A stretch of DNA of 58,776 bases from Desulfobacteraceae bacterium. Its GTDB lineage: Bacteria; Desulfobacterota; Desulfobacteria; Desulfobacterales; UBA2174. Location: contig JAQVTF010000002.1 in NCBI GenBank assembly GCA_028700185.1, forward strand, positions 1 to 58,776, read 5' to 3'. The stretch's first letter is position 1, and every line of letters starts with the position of its first letter. A program made the position numbers and the translations under genes. Shown in pieces: positions 15,394 to 54,786 of the stretch. The notes below the pieces were generated by a model. That model searched no databases. It was not told the origin of the DNA and saw nothing but the letters and a program-made list of their open reading frames with translations.

Positions 15394-15834
15394 TCAGGCG
15401 GCGCTGTCCACCGGCGCTTCCGGCACCGCCACGGGGTTGGGGCCCAGAGACCGGATCTTCTCGGTAAAACGGGTCACCACCTCGGCAAAGCGCGGGGCTT
15501 CGGCGGAGGATACCCACTCGATGGCGAACCGCTCTGGCTCGATCCCCAAATCCTCGAGCACGATATGAATGGCGGCGGTCCGGTTCAGGGCCTTGGCATT
15601 ACCGTCCAGGTAATGGCATTCACCGAGGTGTCAACCCATGACGATGACACCGTCGGCACCCTTCTGCAGCGCCCCCACCACCAGGTCTGGGTGCACCATC
15701 CCCGAACACATCACCCGCACCGCACGCATGTTGGGCGGGTACTGAAGGCGCGACACGCCGGCCAGGTCGCCGCCGGCATAGGCGCACCAGTTGCACAGAA
15801 AGCCGATGATGACAGGCTCAAAATTGTCGGCCAT
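15394..15834 (-). CDS. mvhD: MvhD-type hydrogenase delta subunit. The in-frame TGA at 15631-15633 is read as selenocysteine.
   Basis: GFLCNWCAYAGGDLAGVSRLQYPPNMRAVRVMCSG...GADGVIVMG + TGA. The same frame continues HLGECHYLDGNAKA...ERFAIEWVSSAEAPRFAE... to TGA at 15394-15396. Cys-type homologs carry G-C-H-x-G-D/E-C-H-Y here. Confidence 0.85.
15597..15615 (-). promoter_or_regulatory. candidate bacterial SECIS hairpin for the mvhD UGA
   Basis: The mRNA reads CAUUACC-UGGAC-GGUAAUG (7-bp stem, 5-nt loop) and begins 15 nt after UGA. Confidence 0.55.
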
Positions 15835-15863
15835 GATGAGATTCCTTTCTAAGAATGGGGAAA

Positions 15864-16352
15864 AATGACTTAAGTGACTAAAAACTGAGTGACTAAAATT
15901 ACGAGTGACTAAAGTGACTAAAAACTGAGTGACTAAAATTACGAGTGACTAAAGTGACTAAAGTGGTGGTGTCGCTGCGCTCCGGTTTTTATATAACTGG
16001 CAGAATTCATTCACTTTAGCTCACTTTAGTCACTTTAGTTCACTTTAGTTCACTTGACACTCTAGATCACTTTGGCTTTTTTAGTGACTAAAATTACGAG
16101 TGCCTAAAGTGGTGGTGTCGCTGCGCTCCGGTTTTTATATAACTGGCAGAATTCATTCACTTTAGCTCACTTTAGTTCACTTTAGTCACTTTAGTTCACT
16201 TGACACTCTAGATCACTTTGGCTTTTTAGTGACTAAAATTACGAGTGACTAAAGTGACTAAAGTGGTGGTGTCGCTGCGCTCCGGTTTTTATATAACTGG
16301 CAGAATTCATTCACTTTAGCTCACTTTAGTCACTTTAGTTCACTTTAGTCAC
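15864..16352. repeat. AT-rich, ORF-free array of about three composite palindromic units (146-154 nt) built from phased GTGACTAAA / TCACTTTAG 9-mers around a roughly 45-nt core
   Basis: The core AAGTGGTGGTGTCGCTGCGCTCCGGTTTTTATATAACTGGCAGAATTCAT occurs at 15961, 16107 and 16261. 15928-16049 is identical to 16228-16349 (122 nt). There is an exact 40-nt tandem duplication at 15881-15920 / 15921-15960. Seven exact GTGACTAAA copies lie in 15874-15962. The array fills the hdrA-mvhD intercistronic gap. Confidence 0.9.
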
Positions 16353-16359
16353 TTTTTTT

Positions 16360-19300
16360 TCATTTCACCAACGCCGCCTCCACCTGGGCCTCGAGCTGGT
16401 CCAGGGTGAATCCGTGTACCAGGACGCCTCCCTTGGGACAGGTGGCCTCGCAGAGTCCGCATCCCTTGCACAGGGCCGGATCGGTCTTGATGCGTTTGTG
16501 CACGGTGCCGTTTTCGGCCTGGAATTCTTCCAGGGAGATGGCCCGGTACGGGCACACATCCACGCACAGGGCACAGCCGTCGCATTTGTCGGTGACGAAA
16601 CTCTTGATGGCATCGAGCTGCATTTCGTCCCGGTCCAGCAGAATCGCGGCACGGGCTGCCGCCGCCTGGGCCTGGGCGATACTCTCGTCCACCGGCTTGG
16701 GGTAGTTGCACAGCCCCGCCACGAACAGGCCGTCCACGGACATGTCCACCGGTCGCAGCTTGGGATGGGCCTCGTTGAGAAACCCGTCCTCGTTCTGGCC
16801 GCACTTGTACAGCTCCACCAGGGACCGATTCGGGTAGGGTTCAATGGCCGACGCCAGCACGAGGTAGTCGACGTCAAACTCGAGGGGCATCTGGAGAATC
16901 GGGTCGAAGGCCGTTACCGTCACCCCGTCGCTGCCCGGGGCGACCCCGGGCTTGCGATCCACATCGTAGCGGATGAAAATGACCCCCAGGGCCCGGGCCT
17001 GCTGGTAGAGCAGCTCACGCTTGCCGTAGGTACGAATGTCCCGGTACATCACGTAGACCGGCATCTCCGGCTGGAGGGTCTTGAGGCGGATGGCGCTTTT
17101 CATGGTGTGGGTGCAGCAGATGCGGCTGCAGTAGGGCCGCTTCGGCTCGCGGGAGCCCACACACTGGATGAAGGCCACCCCGGCGGCCTGCCGGATCTCG
17201 TCCGCATGCCCCTCGACGAAAGCGTCGAACTCCAGGTGGGTCATCACCCGGTCGCTCTCCCCGTAGCCGTACGCCTCGGGCACCGATTCCCGGGCGCCCA
17301 CCGCCACCACGGCAGCCCCGTAGCTCACGGCACGGGTTTCTCCGTCGACTTCGATGCGACTGACAAAATTGCCCACCGATCCCACCGCGGTCAAGAGTCG
17401 GGCGTTCTTCATCACCTGGACCCCCGGGTGGGCTTCCACCTGACCGATCATGGCTTCAAGCATGGGCCGAATCGGTTCCCCCGTCTCGGTTTCGCCCAAA
17501 CGCCAGGCGTTGCCCCCGAGGCGCTGGCCTTTTTCCAGCAGCACGGTGGGAATATCCCGGTCAGCCAGGGTCAGGGCCGCCGTCATGCCGGCGATGCCAC
17601 CGCCGATGACCAGGGCCTTGCGGGTCACCGGTACCCGCAGCCGGCCCAAGGGCGCCATGCGGGACGCCTTGGCCACGGCCATGCGCACCTGGACCTTGGC
17701 CTTTTCGGTGGCCTGTTCGGGCATTTTCTGGTGCACCCAGGAATTCTGGTTGCGGATGTTGGCCATCTCGATGAGGTACGGGTTGAGGCCGGCCTCCTGA
17801 AGCGTCTCCTGGAACAAGGGTTCATGGGTGCGCGGGGTACAGGCGGCCACCACAATCCGATTGAGACCGTGTTCGGCGATCTTCTTGGCGATGAGATCCT
17901 GGGTGTCGGCCGAACAGGTGAACAGGTTGTTGTCCACAAACACCACGTTGGGCAAAGTGGCGGCATAGGCGGCCACCGCCTTCACGTCCACCACGCCGGC
18001 GATGTTGATGCCGCAGGAACAGACAAAAACACCGATGCGCGGGGTCTCTCCGGCCACGTCCCGTTCGTCCGGATAGGTCTTCTCGTGTGTCAGGGCCCCC
18101 CGGGCGGGCAGCATGAGGTGAGCCGCCTCGGCGGCGGCGGTGGAGGCTTCGGCCACCGAGCGAGGGATCGCCTTGGGCCCCTGGAAGGCCCCGGTGACAA
18201 AAACCCCGGGACGGGTGCTGCACACCGGATGGAAATAATCGGTCTTGGCGAAACCGTAGGCGTCGAGCTCGATGCCGAAGGCCGCCGCCAACTGCCGGGC
18301 GTCCGCCGGCGCCTCCAACCCCACGGACAGGACCGTCATGTCGAAGGTTTCCACCTGCGTCTGCCCATCTTCGGTGGTGTACCGCAGGCTGACACCGTGC
18401 CCGTCGGGGCCCGGGTCGATGGAGTGGGGCCGAGCCCGGATAAACTGCACCCCCTTGGCCCGAGCGTCTTCGTAGAAGCGTTCGAATTCTTTGCCCGGAC
18501 TGCGGATGTCCATGTAAAAAATGCTCTGTTGGACCTCGTCGCCGGTGAGGTGCTCGGCGGTGACCAGGGACTGCTTGATGGCATACATGCAGCAAACGCT
18601 GGAACAGTAAGCATTGGTGCAACGGTTGGTGCTGCGGGAGCCCACGCACTGGATCCAGGCGATACGGCGGGGTTCCCGGTTGTCCGAGGGGCGCTTGAGG
18701 TGCCCCATGCAGGGCCCTCCGGCCGAGAGCAGTCGTTCGTACTCCAGACTGGTAACCACATCGGGGATCTTCTTGTAGCCGTAGAAATCATACGGTGACG
18801 GGTCGAACGGCTGGAAACCGGGGGCCAGAATCACCGCCCCCACTTGGAGATCGAAAAACTTTTCCTCGTCGTCGAAACGGATGGCGCCGGTGGGACAGAA
18901 CTTCTCGCAGGCCCGGCATTTGCCCCGGGTCAGATAGATGCAGTGCTCGGGATCGATGGCATACTTGAGCGGCACCGACTGACCGTACTTGATGTAGGCC
19001 GCCTTGCGCTTGTTGAGCCCCATGTTGAAGGCGTCATCGACCCGTTTGGGACATTTTTCCGCGCACAGCCCGCAGGCGATGCACTTTTCCATGTCGATGT
19101 AACGGGGGTGTTGCTTGACGGTGACGGTGAAGTTGCCCGCCTCGCCCTTGACATCGACCACTTCCGAAAGGGTAAGCAAATTGACGTTGAGATGCCGGCC
19201 GACCTCGACCAGTTTCGGAGAGATGATTCACATGGCGCAATCGTTGGTGGGATAAGTCTTGTCCAACTGGGCCATGACGCCGCCGATGCCGGCGGTCTTT

Positions 19301-19407
19301 TCCACCATGTGAACGTAATAGCCGGACTCGGCCAGGTCGAGGGTCGCCTGGATGGCGGCGATGCCCCCGCCGACCACCATTGCCGCTCCAATGGGAGATT
19401 GAGACAT
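16360..19407 (-). CDS. hdrA: tandem (double-module) HdrA-family flavo-iron-sulfur protein. The in-frame TGA at 19228-19230 is read as selenocysteine.
   Basis: ATG at 19407 with an AAGAGG RBS. The sequence reads [20 protein letters not shown]...[12 protein letters not shown] + TGA + [12 protein letters not shown]..., joining the 16360-19179 ORF in frame. Cys homologs carry FPTxDC(S/A)xCI at this point. It has ferredoxin CxxCxxCxxxCP motifs and a second FAD module ([15 protein letters not shown]). Confidence 0.85.
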
Positions 19408-20196
19408 GGAAACCTCTTTTTTGTTTTCAGAAAAAGTTAAAGGGGTTGCTGCCTGACCGGGCACCGTGTGGTGCCCGGACGCCATCGCGGCCCGCCAAGC
19501 GTCCTCTTCGATCCCCGCATCCTGGCAAAACCGCTCCAGTTCCTCCTCCTGGATCAGATACTTCTTGCCGATGGTGGGCCGGGCGGGCAATTTGCCGGTT
19601 TTAATCCAGTTGGTGACGGTGTTGCGGTGGACCCCCAATTGGGCGGCGAGAGTGCCGACCCGAAACATAAGGGCGTTTCCACCCCCGCCGCCGGCTACGG
19701 TACCAGACGGGGGCACAAGGATATCCATGATCCACTGACACATGGGCCTCACGGCAGCCTGCACCGAAGCGGAAAGGCCCGGATGGACCTCGGATGGGAT
19801 ATCGGCCGGATTGACCACCAGAATGCGCACGTCGATGTCGGTGTGCTGTCGCAGCTCCTTGAGCATATTGGTGGTGGGAAACTGGTGCAGCGAATAATCG
19901 ACGATCTTGGCCGGCTGGATTTCGTCGAGCCCGATTTCGCGGATTTCGCCGGGGGAAGCGTCCTTGAGGGCCATGGCGTCCACGATGATGATCTGCCGCG
20001 GATATTTTCGCGACAGGAGCATATCGAAAAGAATGTCGCGCACCGCGGTGCCCACATCCAGGTAGGCCACGTCGGACGGTAGTCGATACTCGGCTTCAAG
20101 CAGTCGAATCACTTCCGCCCCGAACCCGTCGTCACCGAACAGAGGGTTGCCGCAGCCAAACACCAGCCGGGGTTTTTCGTAAATGCGCTTGAGCAT
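19408..20196 (-). CDS. hydrogenase maturation endopeptidase (HycI/HybD/FrhD-like) fused to a C-terminal excisionase/MerR-type HTH. No stop codon precedes hdrA.
   Basis: [16 protein letters not shown] and SLHQF protease motifs, a GGGGG linker, then [47 protein letters not shown]. The frame runs uninterrupted into hdrA, and the first stop is the TGA at 19228. The end given here is simply the base before the hdrA ATG. Confidence 0.7.
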
Positions 20197-20557
20197 GATC
20201 CAGGCCCCCAAAGTCTTGGATTAAAAAACAATAACAATTACCGATTTGGGCAATATAGTCAATAGAGATTGTGCAAAAGATGCCATTTTTAAAATCGTCG
20301 GCCTACACCAATTTCTTTTTTCCGGCAAGAAAAATTTTAATCAACACAGATTCCCCACCCGGTTGCGGGGGGTGAAAAATGCCAAGGAACGAAGGTGCAG
20401 GTTTCCTCCTTCGGCGCGACGCTGAGGAAAAGTTTCCGAACTTACGACAAAAGGGGGGGGGGACCACAAAAACAGATATCGGCGCTACAGCCGGCCAGCA
20501 AGCCACCGGCGAGAGTTGGAAATTTCCAATAATGCCCTTCAACCGGCCGGGGACGCC

Positions 20558-46875: not shown

Positions 46876-46979
46876 GCTGAAACCTTGAACCTGGAACGCG
46901 CCGAAGGTGCTTTGAACCTTGAACCTTGAACGCGCCAAAGGCGCCTTGAACTTGGAACCTGGAACGCGCCGAAGGCGCC
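46876..46979 (+). repeat. GCTGAAACCTTGAACCT-family repeat: three units of TTGAACC-type 7-mers, each ending in a GCGCC-(G/A)AA-GG(C/T)GC mini-hairpin
   Basis: ...GGAACGCGCCGAAGGTGC / ...GAACGCGCCAAAGGCGCC / ...GGAACGCGCCGAAGGCGCC, separated by (C)CTTGAA repeats. It lies immediately upstream of the GT2 gene. Confidence 0.85.
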
Positions 46980-46984
46980 TCCCC

Positions 46985-53217: not shown

Positions 53218-54786
53218 ATGGGCAAAGACAGTCTGACAAAGTCTACCACCAAGAAGAAGACTTCCTCCAAGAAAAAGAAAACAGCCGCCGCCAAAAAGGC
53301 CGCCGCACCGTCCCTGCGCGACCTGCTGCACAAGAAATTCGATTGGCGCGGGCCTGAATCACTTTACCAGCCGCCGGCACCGGCAACCCGCGGAGATTTT
53401 ACCGCACCGCCGTTTATCGAAACCGACGATCCTGAAGAAGCGAAACGGATCCGTGCGCTGTTGTTCAAAAAATTCAGTCTCGCCGACTTGGCTGCCGCTG
53501 CAAAGGCTGAAGCGGAGGCTCGATTAAAGGCCGAAGAGGAGGCCCGGAAGAAAGCCGAAGCCAAGGCCAAGGCCGAAGCGGAAGCCCAGAAGAAAGCCGA
53601 GGCGAAAGCCAAGGCCAAAGCCGAGGAGGAAGCCCGGAAAAAGGCCGAGGCGGAAGCCAAGGCCAAGGCCGAAGAGGAAGCCCGGAAGAAAGCCGAGGCG
53701 GAAGCCAAGGCCAAGGCCGAAGAGGAAGCCCGGAAAAAGGCCGAGGCGGAAGCCAAGGCCAAGGCCGAGGAGGAAGCCCGGAAAAAGGCCGAGGCGGAAG
53801 CCAAGGCCAAGGCCGAGGAGGAAGCGCGAAAGAAAGCCGAGGCGGAAGCCAAGGCCAAGGCCGAAGAGGAAGCCCGGAAAAAGGCCGAGGCGGAAGCCAA
53901 GGCCAAAGCCGAAGAAGAAGCGCGAAAGAAAGCCGAGGCGGAAGCCAAGGCCAAAGCTGAGGAGGAAGCGCGATTGAAAGCAAAAGAGGAAGCGCGAATC
54001 AAGGCGGAAGCCGAAAAGCTGGTCGCTGAACGCGCTGCGGCACGAAAGGCAGCGGCGGCCAGTGAACCGCAGGTTTCGGTCACTTACGGAGATGCCCAGG
54101 GCACTCCGCCCTCAGCCCCATCGGCCCCCGTGGACAACACCGGCCGCTGGGCCATGATGGGCTTGGCCGGGGGCATCGCGTTGCTTTTTGTCCTGATCGT
54201 CGGCGCCAGCTTGGCCAATTCGAGCAAGTACTATCTCGAGTCGACTTCACAGGGTCTGGAGATTTACCAGGGCAAATTTGCTCCCCTGGGCACCCGCCAG
54301 GTCCTCTTTCTGCCTGGGGTGACCGGACCGGAAGCACCGGCGCCGGTGTATCGTCGGTCGGAGGTGATGCCCTTCGCGGTCCAGTATTTCCTCGCCCAGG
54401 CCGACGCTCGCCTGGCCGAGGCGTCCGTGGCGGATTACGCGCAGGTCAAGGAGCCGCTGGAAAAGGCCCTGGAATACGCCACCAGCCGCGATGAAAAACT
54501 GTTGATCCAGGATCGCCTGGATGCCATCGATCGGGCCATGTTGATCTACAAAGCACAGATCAGCGCCGCCCGCCAATCCCTCGATGGGTATGACGAGGCC
54601 ATCAACGCTTATCGTGAAGCCCTGCGCCTCGCGGAAGCGGACATCGACATTCAGGCCATCGGAACGCGCATTGCCGCCGTGGAAACAGCCCGGGCCGACC
54701 TGAAGGCGCGGATAGCTGAGGCGACCGCCGCCGAAACGGCAGTTGCTGAAGAACCGGCCACCGAAGAAACCAACCCCGCCGAGTAG
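53218..54786 (+). CDS. membrane-anchored protein with a Lys-rich N-terminus, a TolA-like Ala/Glu/Lys repeat region, one TM segment and a C-terminal domain of unknown function
   Basis: [30 protein letters not shown]..., 7x [16 protein letters not shown], and the TM segment [23 protein letters not shown]. Confidence 0.8.
53623..53958 (+). repeat. seven tandem 48-nt coding repeats, identical at the protein level (16 aa each), inside the 53218-54786 CDS
   Basis: The protein unit [16 protein letters not shown] occurs seven times consecutively. The DNA copies differ only at a few synonymous positions. Degenerate copies extend to roughly 53494-54010. Confidence 0.9.

Follow-up and report, generated by a model that had tools for sequence, protein, structure and literature searches.

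A tandem triplet of palindromic repeat units between hdrA and mvhD, and its relation to a family of repeat arrays around four-helix-bundle genes

The subject of this study is an A+T-rich repeat block between an hdrA-like gene and mvhD of a Desulfobacteraceae bacterium (assembly GCA_028700185.1, contig JAQVTF010000002.1, positions 1 to 58,776 of the forward strand; this whole stretch of 58,776 nt is called the window below). We consider it likely that three non-autonomous copies of a palindromic selfish element, joined head to tail, make up the block. In its full-length form the element consists of a CTAAAGTG array, a short leader, a gene of ∼115 amino acids (aa) of PF05635/TIGR02436, a short trailer and a CACTTTAG array. 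In the window units the gene has been lost by internal deletion, with the two arms and a fused leader and trailer, the 45-nt core, being kept. The block is on this reading an ordinary copy of a repeat family and not a bespoke regulator of the hdr/mvh genes, and its interest lies in the family.

The gap between the stop codon of the hdrA-like gene and the start of mvhD spans 525 nt (15835-16359). It is filled by the repeat block (15864-16359), which adjoins the hdrA stop codon and ends 29 nt short of the mvhD ATG. Both genes are read on the minus strand; the stop codon of the hdrA-like gene reads TCA on the plus strand, and the mvhD ATG (15832-15834, CAT on the plus strand) has a ribosome-binding site, GAAAGGAATC (GAAAGGA), just upstream. 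The hdrA-like product carries Pyr_redox_2 and Fer4 domains, and the mvhD product a FlpD domain (E 1e-52, with Cys substituted at an in-frame TGA). The G+C content of the block is 0.37-0.42, compared to 0.6-0.7 in the flanks. No open reading frame (ORF) of at least 40 aa lies inside the block, and two long minus-strand ORFs touch its upper edge only (from 16349 and 16360). These results agree with the initial annotation of this DNA, which had described an A+T-rich, ORF-free block filling the gap in a G+C-rich genome.

Three head-to-tail units of 130-155 nt make up the block, with periods of 146 and 154 nt (Table 1). Each unit runs from a left array of (A)GTGNCTAAA repeats through the core into a right array of TCACTTTAG(T) repeats. 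All three units share an identical 45-nt core, and the identity of 15928-16049 with 16228-16349 is 100%; both this identity and the periods had been annotated correctly. For the middle copy, at 16074-16195, ungapped identity is 79%. A 40-nt tandem duplication had also been annotated and is present, at 15866-15905 / 15906-15945 instead of 15881-15960, and with one mismatch (98% identity) instead of being exact. The repeats had been taken for phased 9-mers; the conserved word is an 8-mer, CTAAAGTG (F) or CACTTTAG (R), with a variable spacer of 1-2 nt, not a fixed 9-mer. All exact words in the window (6 F and 12 R) fall within the block, in the order FFFRRRR-FRRRR-FFRRRR. When up to one mismatch was allowed, GTGACTAAA matched 22 times in the window, compared to 4.06 ± 1.95 times in shuffled sequence, and 18 of the 22 matches were in the block. 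On the minus strand a 23-codon ORF with an ATG passes through each core; it was rejected as a gene because its ATG is absent from two other core-bearing loci (L122 and L108).

The identity of the element is given by copies in which a gene is present. An ORF of 115-140 aa was found between a left and a right array in three loci from two phyla. It matches PF05635 '23S rRNA-intervening sequence protein' (E 1e-17 and 4e-19), TIGR02436 'four helix bundle protein' (E 3e-22) and PDB entry 2rld (E 7.7e-26). Scanning with the ORF product returned at least 583 loci, and array statistics were taken from the best 80 of these, with proteins 65-100% identical across phyla; they belong to Planctomycetota, Desulfobacterota, Bacteroidota, Calditrichaceae, Acidobacteriota and one anammox metagenome-assembled genome (MAG). 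An exact CTAAAGTG lies within 150 nt upstream of the gene in 58/80 loci and an exact CACTTTAG in 1/80; within 200 nt downstream the counts are 58/80 for CACTTTAG and 8/80 for CTAAAGTG. Word density is 8.1 per kb beside the gene versus 0.22 per kb elsewhere in the 80 loci, and loci without exact words carry degenerate or variant arrays instead. In all 80 the four-helix-bundle gene, roughly 345 nt long, alone fills the space between the arms. Full-length and ORF-less copies occur together in at least eight assemblies (CAZRMQ01, CAZRNB01, CAYGZM01, CAZHBL01, JAFGTG01, DAOVMB01, JAOUGB01 and CAYPIW01).

The core of the window units resembles the two non-coding segments of such full-length copies. 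At full-length Desulfobacterales junctions the leader before the ATG comprises a small G+C-rich hairpin and an A+T-rich run, and the trailer after the stop codon is conserved (...TAAAATTGGYAGAATAC...AACTTTAG). On the plus strand of the window, AAAGTGACTAAAGTGGTGGTGTCGCTGCGCTCC is identical to the leader of L197 at 30 of 33 positions, and ATATAACTGGCAGAATTCATTCACTTTAGCTCACTTTAG to the trailer of L165 at 33 of 39, the trailer of L160 being similar. The core thus corresponds to leader plus trailer, and the units are therefore internal-deletion derivatives of the full-length element. A first BLAST of the core against all loci gave UBA2174 copies only; the match to leader and trailer came from listing the full-length junctions. 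The former sense strand of the units is the plus strand of the window, antisense to hdrA and mvhD.

Several further features of the full-length copies were observed. The small G+C-rich leader hairpin followed by an A+T-rich run is seen in L165, L166, L197, L199, L200, L211, L213 and L222, and its sequence varies between copies while self-complementarity is kept (GCGCtttcaGCGC, GGCGCtttGCGCC, GGAGtcgcttcgCTCC). In many Planctomycetota copies the ATG is just 4 nt from the last repeat. Four loci (L174, L179, L183 and L191, ∼1501-1845 of each), one of them from a MAG labelled Acidobacteriota, carry a full-length element at one shared junction, between an ORF ending ...NPKLRER and an ORF starting ...L(S/L)VQDL(R/K)V(H/Y)F, which we take to be a peptide-ABC permease and ATPase by resemblance. 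The element may have been inserted there long ago in a common ancestor, may prefer this site, or may have travelled with a transferred operon.

Core-bearing units form a subfamily of their own. The pattern GTCGCTKCGCTCCGG-N20-35-ACTTTAG was found at 48 loci, where ∼2 were expected by chance, so the core is not unique, as it had been called. Almost all of these loci belong to Desulfobacterales; UBA2174 accounts for at least 16 of them and CWP6-1.bin.108 for at least 9. A metagenome scan gave 0 matches to the exact 37-nt core and 10 contigs with a looser 28-nt pattern. Head-to-tail doublets and triplets of core units occur in independent metagenome and MAG contigs (Table 1), with periods of ∼110-165 nt and linkers of the type CACTTGTCACTTTTTTGAGTG throughout; tandem multiplication is therefore a habit of the subfamily and not a peculiarity of the window. 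In genomes of the UBA2174 type a core unit is also found nested in a second, unrelated inverted repeat, CTCGGGATGACAC ... GTGTCATTCCGAAC, giving a composite repeat.

The wider family was defined by inverted arrays, in the order F...R, with two or more CTAAAGTG / CACTTTAG words spaced 9-10 nt apart. For the exact pattern GTGACTAAAGTG-N30-60-TCACTTTAG, with a chance expectation roughly estimated at <10, a scan gave at least 110 matching loci in six or more phyla, among them Planctomycetota, Bacteroidota, Desulfobacterota, KSB1 and Chloroflexota. The matched taxa include Pirellulales, Phycisphaerae/Sedimentisphaerales, Prolixibacteraceae/Bacteroidales, Desulfobacterales, KSB1, Aegiribacteria and Chloroflexi. 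All listed matches share a left CTAAAGTG run, a variable centre and a right CACTTTAG run. Words are spaced by 9 nt in 94 cases and by 10 nt in 115, and the 1-2-nt spacer is C, A, AG, AA, T or AT, with G almost never seen. Variant words shift jointly in both arms, CTAAAATG going with CATTTTAG in L169; L192 has the same left-arm variant, and its contig stops before the right arm. Of 106 elements, 104 are intergenic, and the median distance to the adjacent ORFs is 22-23 nt. The genes on either side are co-directional for 72%, and a stretch of 8 kb often contains two or three elements. A count of orientations gave 18 antisense and 9 sense; no conclusion on strand bias is drawn, because ORF calls in G+C-rich loci are unreliable (L122 was mis-called). 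Viral contigs gave no matches to the array pattern. Two expanded arrays were observed as well: 13 consecutive CTAAAGTG units in a one-armed or hyper-expanded array (L040, 7327-7448), and ∼20 copies of AGTACTCTAA after the gene in L214 (downstream of 1845). A full-text literature search on the repeat words, incomplete enough that an earlier description is possible, found no paper on CTAAAGTG arrays, and a similarly incomplete search on intervening sequences (IVS), four-helix-bundle proteins and short tandemly repeated repetitive (STRR) sequences found no account of PF05635 genes with inverted tandem-repeat arrays, nor of any tie between STRR sequences and these genes.

For the four-helix-bundle protein, a phage collection contained only two weak matches, and plasmids only homologues of at most 46% identity. 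Those on plasmids of Nostoc flagelliforme and Planktothrix (40-46% identical) lie between inverted arrays of tandem heptamers. On pNFSY06 of N. flagelliforme (L226) these form a perfect 35-nt (TAATTCG)n inverted repeat (538-572 / 931-965), and on the Planktothrix agardhii plasmid (L225) the arrays at 283-577 / 927-1116 contain the heptamers GATTTAC, AATCCCC and AATCGTA. Cyanobacterial STRR sequences are dispersed intergenic arrays of a short tandem (heptamer) repeat, and the plasmid loci suggest that STRR-type arrays are linked to PF05635 genes in cultured cyanobacteria.

Comparison of 12 orthologous hdrA-mvhD junctions gives a view of the history of the block. The element is missing from ten, where the gaps measure 25-110 nt, and the motif is missing from an eleventh with a gap of 340 nt. 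In the closest relative, Desulfobacteraceae UBA2174 (L122; HdrA 81% identical), a single unit with the same core and orientation occupies this junction, and the hdrA frame there enters the element arm by 6 codons. The simplest reading would be one insertion at the hdrA stop codon before the split of the window organism from UBA2174, followed by local triplication in the window lineage. Unit 2 differs from units 1 and 3, which match each other perfectly, and this would point to gene conversion or unequal exchange rather than two simple successive duplications. Together with the ORF-deleted anatomy and the presence of core units at no fewer than 48 loci, these junctions bear out an earlier proposal that the block is a MITE-like selfish insertion (MITE, miniature inverted-repeat transposable element) that was amplified locally.

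The minus-strand transcript of the whole block is predicted to fold at -170.7 kcal/mol (z = -9.9), as expected from the annotation of long hairpins in this mRNA. Single units range from -32 to -47.5 kcal/mol, the last value being that of unit 3 (z = -8.5). Spacers in the two arms were complementary in 34 of 119 cases, versus 30.5 ± 4.5 by shuffling. With spacer covariation at chance level, simple selection for a perfect hairpin was rejected; the conserved feature is the 8-mer word itself, not the pairing of spacers, and the predicted hairpins are therefore stacks of 8-bp helices with small internal loops. Rfam 15 gave no matches in the window at gathering thresholds and reported no rRNA there; a permissive run returned only sub-threshold hairpins resembling plant and animal miRNAs.

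The position of the block inside an operon means that it is presumably transcribed, antisense to the former gene of the element. Each unit would then form an mRNA hairpin of roughly 35-40 bp. By analogy with S23p-encoding IVSs, which RNase III cleaves in the stem, the block would most likely act as a site of RNase III processing and/or as a barrier to 3'-exonucleases. This would uncouple hdrA from mvhD mRNA and probably break the operon transcript into parts of different stability. A role in intercistronic processing or stability is thus plausible as a consequence of strong hairpins. We read such processing as a by-product of a selfish insertion and not as a designed regulator, and nothing points to selection of the element for setting HdrA:Mvh stoichiometry.

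In trans, a pentamer of the four-helix-bundle protein would probably, if speculatively, recognise the periodic stem, much as the accessory protein Avd of diversity-generating retroelements (DGR) binds a stem-loop via flipped-out bases. The alternation of 8-bp helices and unpaired spacers in the arms is a plausible ligand of this type, again speculatively, and recognition through unpaired spacers would explain why the word is conserved and the spacers are free. The protein itself may also bind the arrays at the DNA level. A far more tentative idea, which we hold to be possible and on balance doubtful, is that S23p/Avd-like pentamers are dedicated maintenance or mobility factors of an unrecognised, cross-phylum class of selfish elements. 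Such a pentamer would identify its own element, as RNA or single-stranded DNA, by the regular interruptions of the hairpin, with unpaired spacers between 8-bp helices, and promote its spread, possibly by an RNA intermediate and a reverse transcriptase acting in trans. IVSs of 23S rRNA, STRR-type arrays and CTAAAGTG arrays would then be one type of element, and their ORF-less hairpins would serve as RNase III or stability sites in operons.

Several observations weigh against the interpretation of the block as copies of a selfish element. No 3-8-bp target-site duplication above the null was found in 103 elements, a weak test given their fuzzy boundaries, and the element encodes no known transposase or recombinase, so that mobility is deduced from distribution only. 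Neither the 58-kb window nor the fetched UBA2174 loci contain a full-length copy, and a six-frame hidden Markov model search of the window found no PF05635/TIGR02436 ORF; a trans-acting partner in this genome is thus only presumed. Unit 2 alone folds weakly (z = -2.2), and a promoter/terminator scan detected neither a promoter nor a terminator of canonical form. The family members are almost all from MAGs, and assembly could have influenced how many copies the window shows. Finally, host-level selection could be reflected in the retention of the element in two lineages and in the Pirellulales, where elements at orthologous sites (L014, L016 and L033) are better conserved than their flanks.

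The last point leads to an alternative that we rate as improbable, in which the array is a host-selected intercistronic regulator, kept for the HdrA:MvhD/hydrogenase ratio through partial termination, processing or stability, its selfish origin being irrelevant. Occupation of the same junction in two diverged genomes would fit this proposal, as would the Pirellulales conservation, the perfect identity of units 1 and 3, the strong folding and the frequent location of family members between co-directional genes. It is opposed by the other orthologous junctions, whose gaps of 25-340 nt lack the element, by the same unit at 48 or more unrelated loci with similar tandem triplets elsewhere, and by the lack of a canonical terminator in the scan. 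The antisense orientation of the element relative to its former gene also speaks against a strand-specific design.

We see very little chance that the block is a helically phased array on double-stranded DNA, bound by a local protein (a HycI-HTH_17 product, HU or another nucleoid protein) and acting on transcription or topology. The 9-10-bp period is near one helical turn, and a conserved 8-mer with spacers that do not covary fits protein recognition. An HTH_17 (helix-turn-helix, HTH) domain encoded upstream in the operon fits as well. The protein at the head of the operon had been annotated as excisionase-like; it is a fusion of a HycI hydrogenase-maturation protease domain with this HTH_17 domain (19231-20211, minus strand), not a plain excisionase type. 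Against such binding, which the initial annotation had suggested for this protein or HU, identical 8-mer arrays stand beside unrelated genes in no fewer than six phyla. Clustering of ∼695 ORFs neighbouring ∼110 elements revealed no recurrent transposase, recombinase, REP-associated tyrosine transposase (RAYT; REP, repetitive extragenic palindromic), HTH or HU gene, and the PF05635 gene is the only consistent partner.

Equally hard to credit is a classical transposase-driven MITE, or a REP or bacterial interspersed mosaic element (BIME) served by a RAYT, whose autonomous partner is unsampled and in which the four-helix-bundle gene is passenger cargo in the loop: small size, non-coding units, inverted termini, dispersed copies, origin by internal deletion and arms resembling the multi-site ends of Foldback-type elements speak for it, and are outweighed by the clustering result, by the solitary four-helix-bundle gene in every full-length locus, by the missing target-site duplication and viral matches, and by the lack of a REP-type GTAG-headed palindrome of 20-40 nt. 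We know of no DNA-cleaving activity of a four-helix-bundle protein.

The reading as a selfish element with a PF05635 partner has consequences beyond this operon. Few small genes without an explanation are as common in bacterial genomes as the PF05635 'four helix bundle' genes, and the nature of 23S rRNA IVSs has been a question since the 1990s. Here, a subfamily conserved at 65-100% lies between inverted arrays of one 8-mer in six or more phyla and spawns ORF-less derivatives. The CTAAAGTG family and the cyanobacterial heptamer arrays together suggest a model in which PF05635 genes are cargo or driver of a palindromic selfish element, and the arrays supply defined RNA and DNA ligands for testing the protein.

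Table 1. Coordinates of the block and its surroundings in the window, and of core units at other loci
Feature	Position	Strand	Remark
Native mvhD 5' untranslated region with ribosome-binding site GAAAGGAATC	15835-15863	-	Outside the element; conserved with the UBA2174 orthologue
Two 40-nt tandem copies; extra GTGACTAAA repeats lengthening the outer left array of unit 1	15866-15945	.	98% identical
Unit 1, left arm AGTGACTAAAATTACGAGTGACTAAAGTGACTAAAGTG (CTAAAGTG-type repeats)	15928-15965	+	
Unit 1, core: leader remnant (GTGGTGTCGCTGCGCTCCGG and A+T-rich TTTTTATATAAC) joined to trailer remnant (TGGCAGAATTCAT)	15966-16010	+	
Unit 1, right arm: four full TCACTTTAG-type repeats and a partial fifth	16011-16055	+	9-10-nt spacing
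Linker 1: degenerate right-arm repeats (GACACTCTAGATCACTTTGG) and T run	16056-16082	+	Linker type recurs between tandem units elsewhere
Unit 2	16083-16201	+	Short left arm 16083-16111 (with GTGCC), core 16112-16156, right arm 16157-16201
Linker 2	16202-16227	+	
Unit 3	16228-16355	+	Left arm 16228-16265, core 16266-16310, right arm 16311-16355
T run between unit 3 and hdrA stop	16353-16359		
Stop codon (TGA) of the hdrA-like gene	16360-16362	-	Directly beside the element
Tandem core units	L274 774-1045; L276 3333-3655; L278 2446-2734; L279 5936-6242		
Tandem core units	L280 5785-6053 and 8044-8201; L281 102-408; L267 7367-7598		
Core unit nested in CTCGGGATGACAC ... GTGTCATTCCGAAC	L108 4185-4345		Also L041, L268, L270, L272, L275, L277

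Other features of the window were also observed. The mvhD gene (15834 to ∼15394, minus strand) has an in-frame TGA at 15631-15633 in the conserved motif GVIVMG*HLGECHY; since the frame continues for another 78 codons, this TGA is probably a selenocysteine codon. Rfam reported no selenocysteine insertion sequence (SECIS) element in the window. A 48-nt tandem repeat of 9.4 copies with 89% match (AAGGCCGAAGAGGAAGCC...) at 53527-53969 is probably coding and rich in Lys, Glu and Ala, and a 34-nt tandem repeat of 2.9 copies lies at 46881-46980.

Among known systems, the closest in appearance are the S23p-encoding IVSs in the 23S rRNA of Coxiella burnetii, Leptospira and Brucella, which are regarded as selfish and in which decay and deletion of the ORF have been observed (PMC4990558). 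In Coxiella the selfish IVS is 428 nt long; RNase III cuts its 28-bp stem, and tandem heptamers (GACAGAT) lie upstream of its S23p ORF (Warrier et al. 2016, PMC4990558). Palindromic termini, a long stem around a small four-helix-bundle ORF and short tandem repeats by the ORF are common to both; for the window units, repeat comparison and folding found complementary termini able to form such a stem. IVSs are inserted into the 23S rRNA gene, at helix 25 or 45, whereas the window element lies in a spacer between protein-coding genes, hdrA and mvhD. The arms of its family consist wholly of 9-10-nt repeats, with one 8-mer across phyla, and many ORF-less copies per genome occur, with units multimerising in tandem. 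The IVS stem is an RNase III substrate, and by analogy the stem of the present family would be one as well.

MITEs and REPINs (Bertels and Rainey 2011, PMC3116915) are likewise short, non-coding, intergenic, palindromic and multicopy, and are derived from or served by a protein-coding partner flanked by the same repeats. They differ in that the partner here is a four-helix-bundle protein and not a DDE or HUH (RAYT) transposase, and the arms are 8-mer arrays and not a single terminal repeat or REP hairpin. Of the features of a MITE, a target-site duplication (weakly tested) and a transposase in the autonomous partner were not found. Arms of 9-10-nt tandem repeats without a recurrent transposase-like neighbour also set the element apart from REP, BIME and REPIN-RAYT systems, and its anatomy likewise differs from enterobacterial repetitive intergenic consensus (ERIC) sequences, in agreement with the initial annotation. 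The same holds for CRISPR (clustered regularly interspaced short palindromic repeats), since the repeats are 9-10 nt and contiguous, not 23-50 nt, and the 'spacer' (core) is identical in three units. Integron attC sites and CIRCE (controlling inverted repeat of chaperone expression) were rejected on anatomy. A large CRISPR-association screen names '23S rRNA IVP' as one of the proteins associated with CRISPR arrays or adaptation modules (PMC10910872), and short-repeat arrays flanking four-helix-bundle genes could have been mis-called as CRISPR arrays there. The family may similarly account for arrays of short repeats in MAGs by which CRISPR and tandem-repeat finders are misled.

Three further systems share single traits with the family. 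STRR sequences are dispersed intergenic short-repeat arrays too, with a 7-nt instead of a 9-10-nt period and a different word. Avd is an S23p-like pentamer that binds an RNA stem-loop with flipped-out bases between protomers (bioRxiv 10.1101/2023.10.23.563531); as a homologous PF05635-like four-helix-bundle pentamer it offers a model for recognition of an interrupted stem (bioRxiv 10.1101/2023.10.23.563531; PMC10053308), whereas genes of the present family have no reverse transcriptase, template repeat or variable repeat beside them, and their binding to the arrays is hypothetical. Foldback/Galileo-type transposons (PMC3573991) have long inverted arms built of short tandem subrepeats, and being eukaryotic, kilobase-scale and transposase-driven they resemble the family in architecture only. 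As a whole, the element resembles MITEs and REPINs in behaviour and IVSs in look, and lacks defining features of each.

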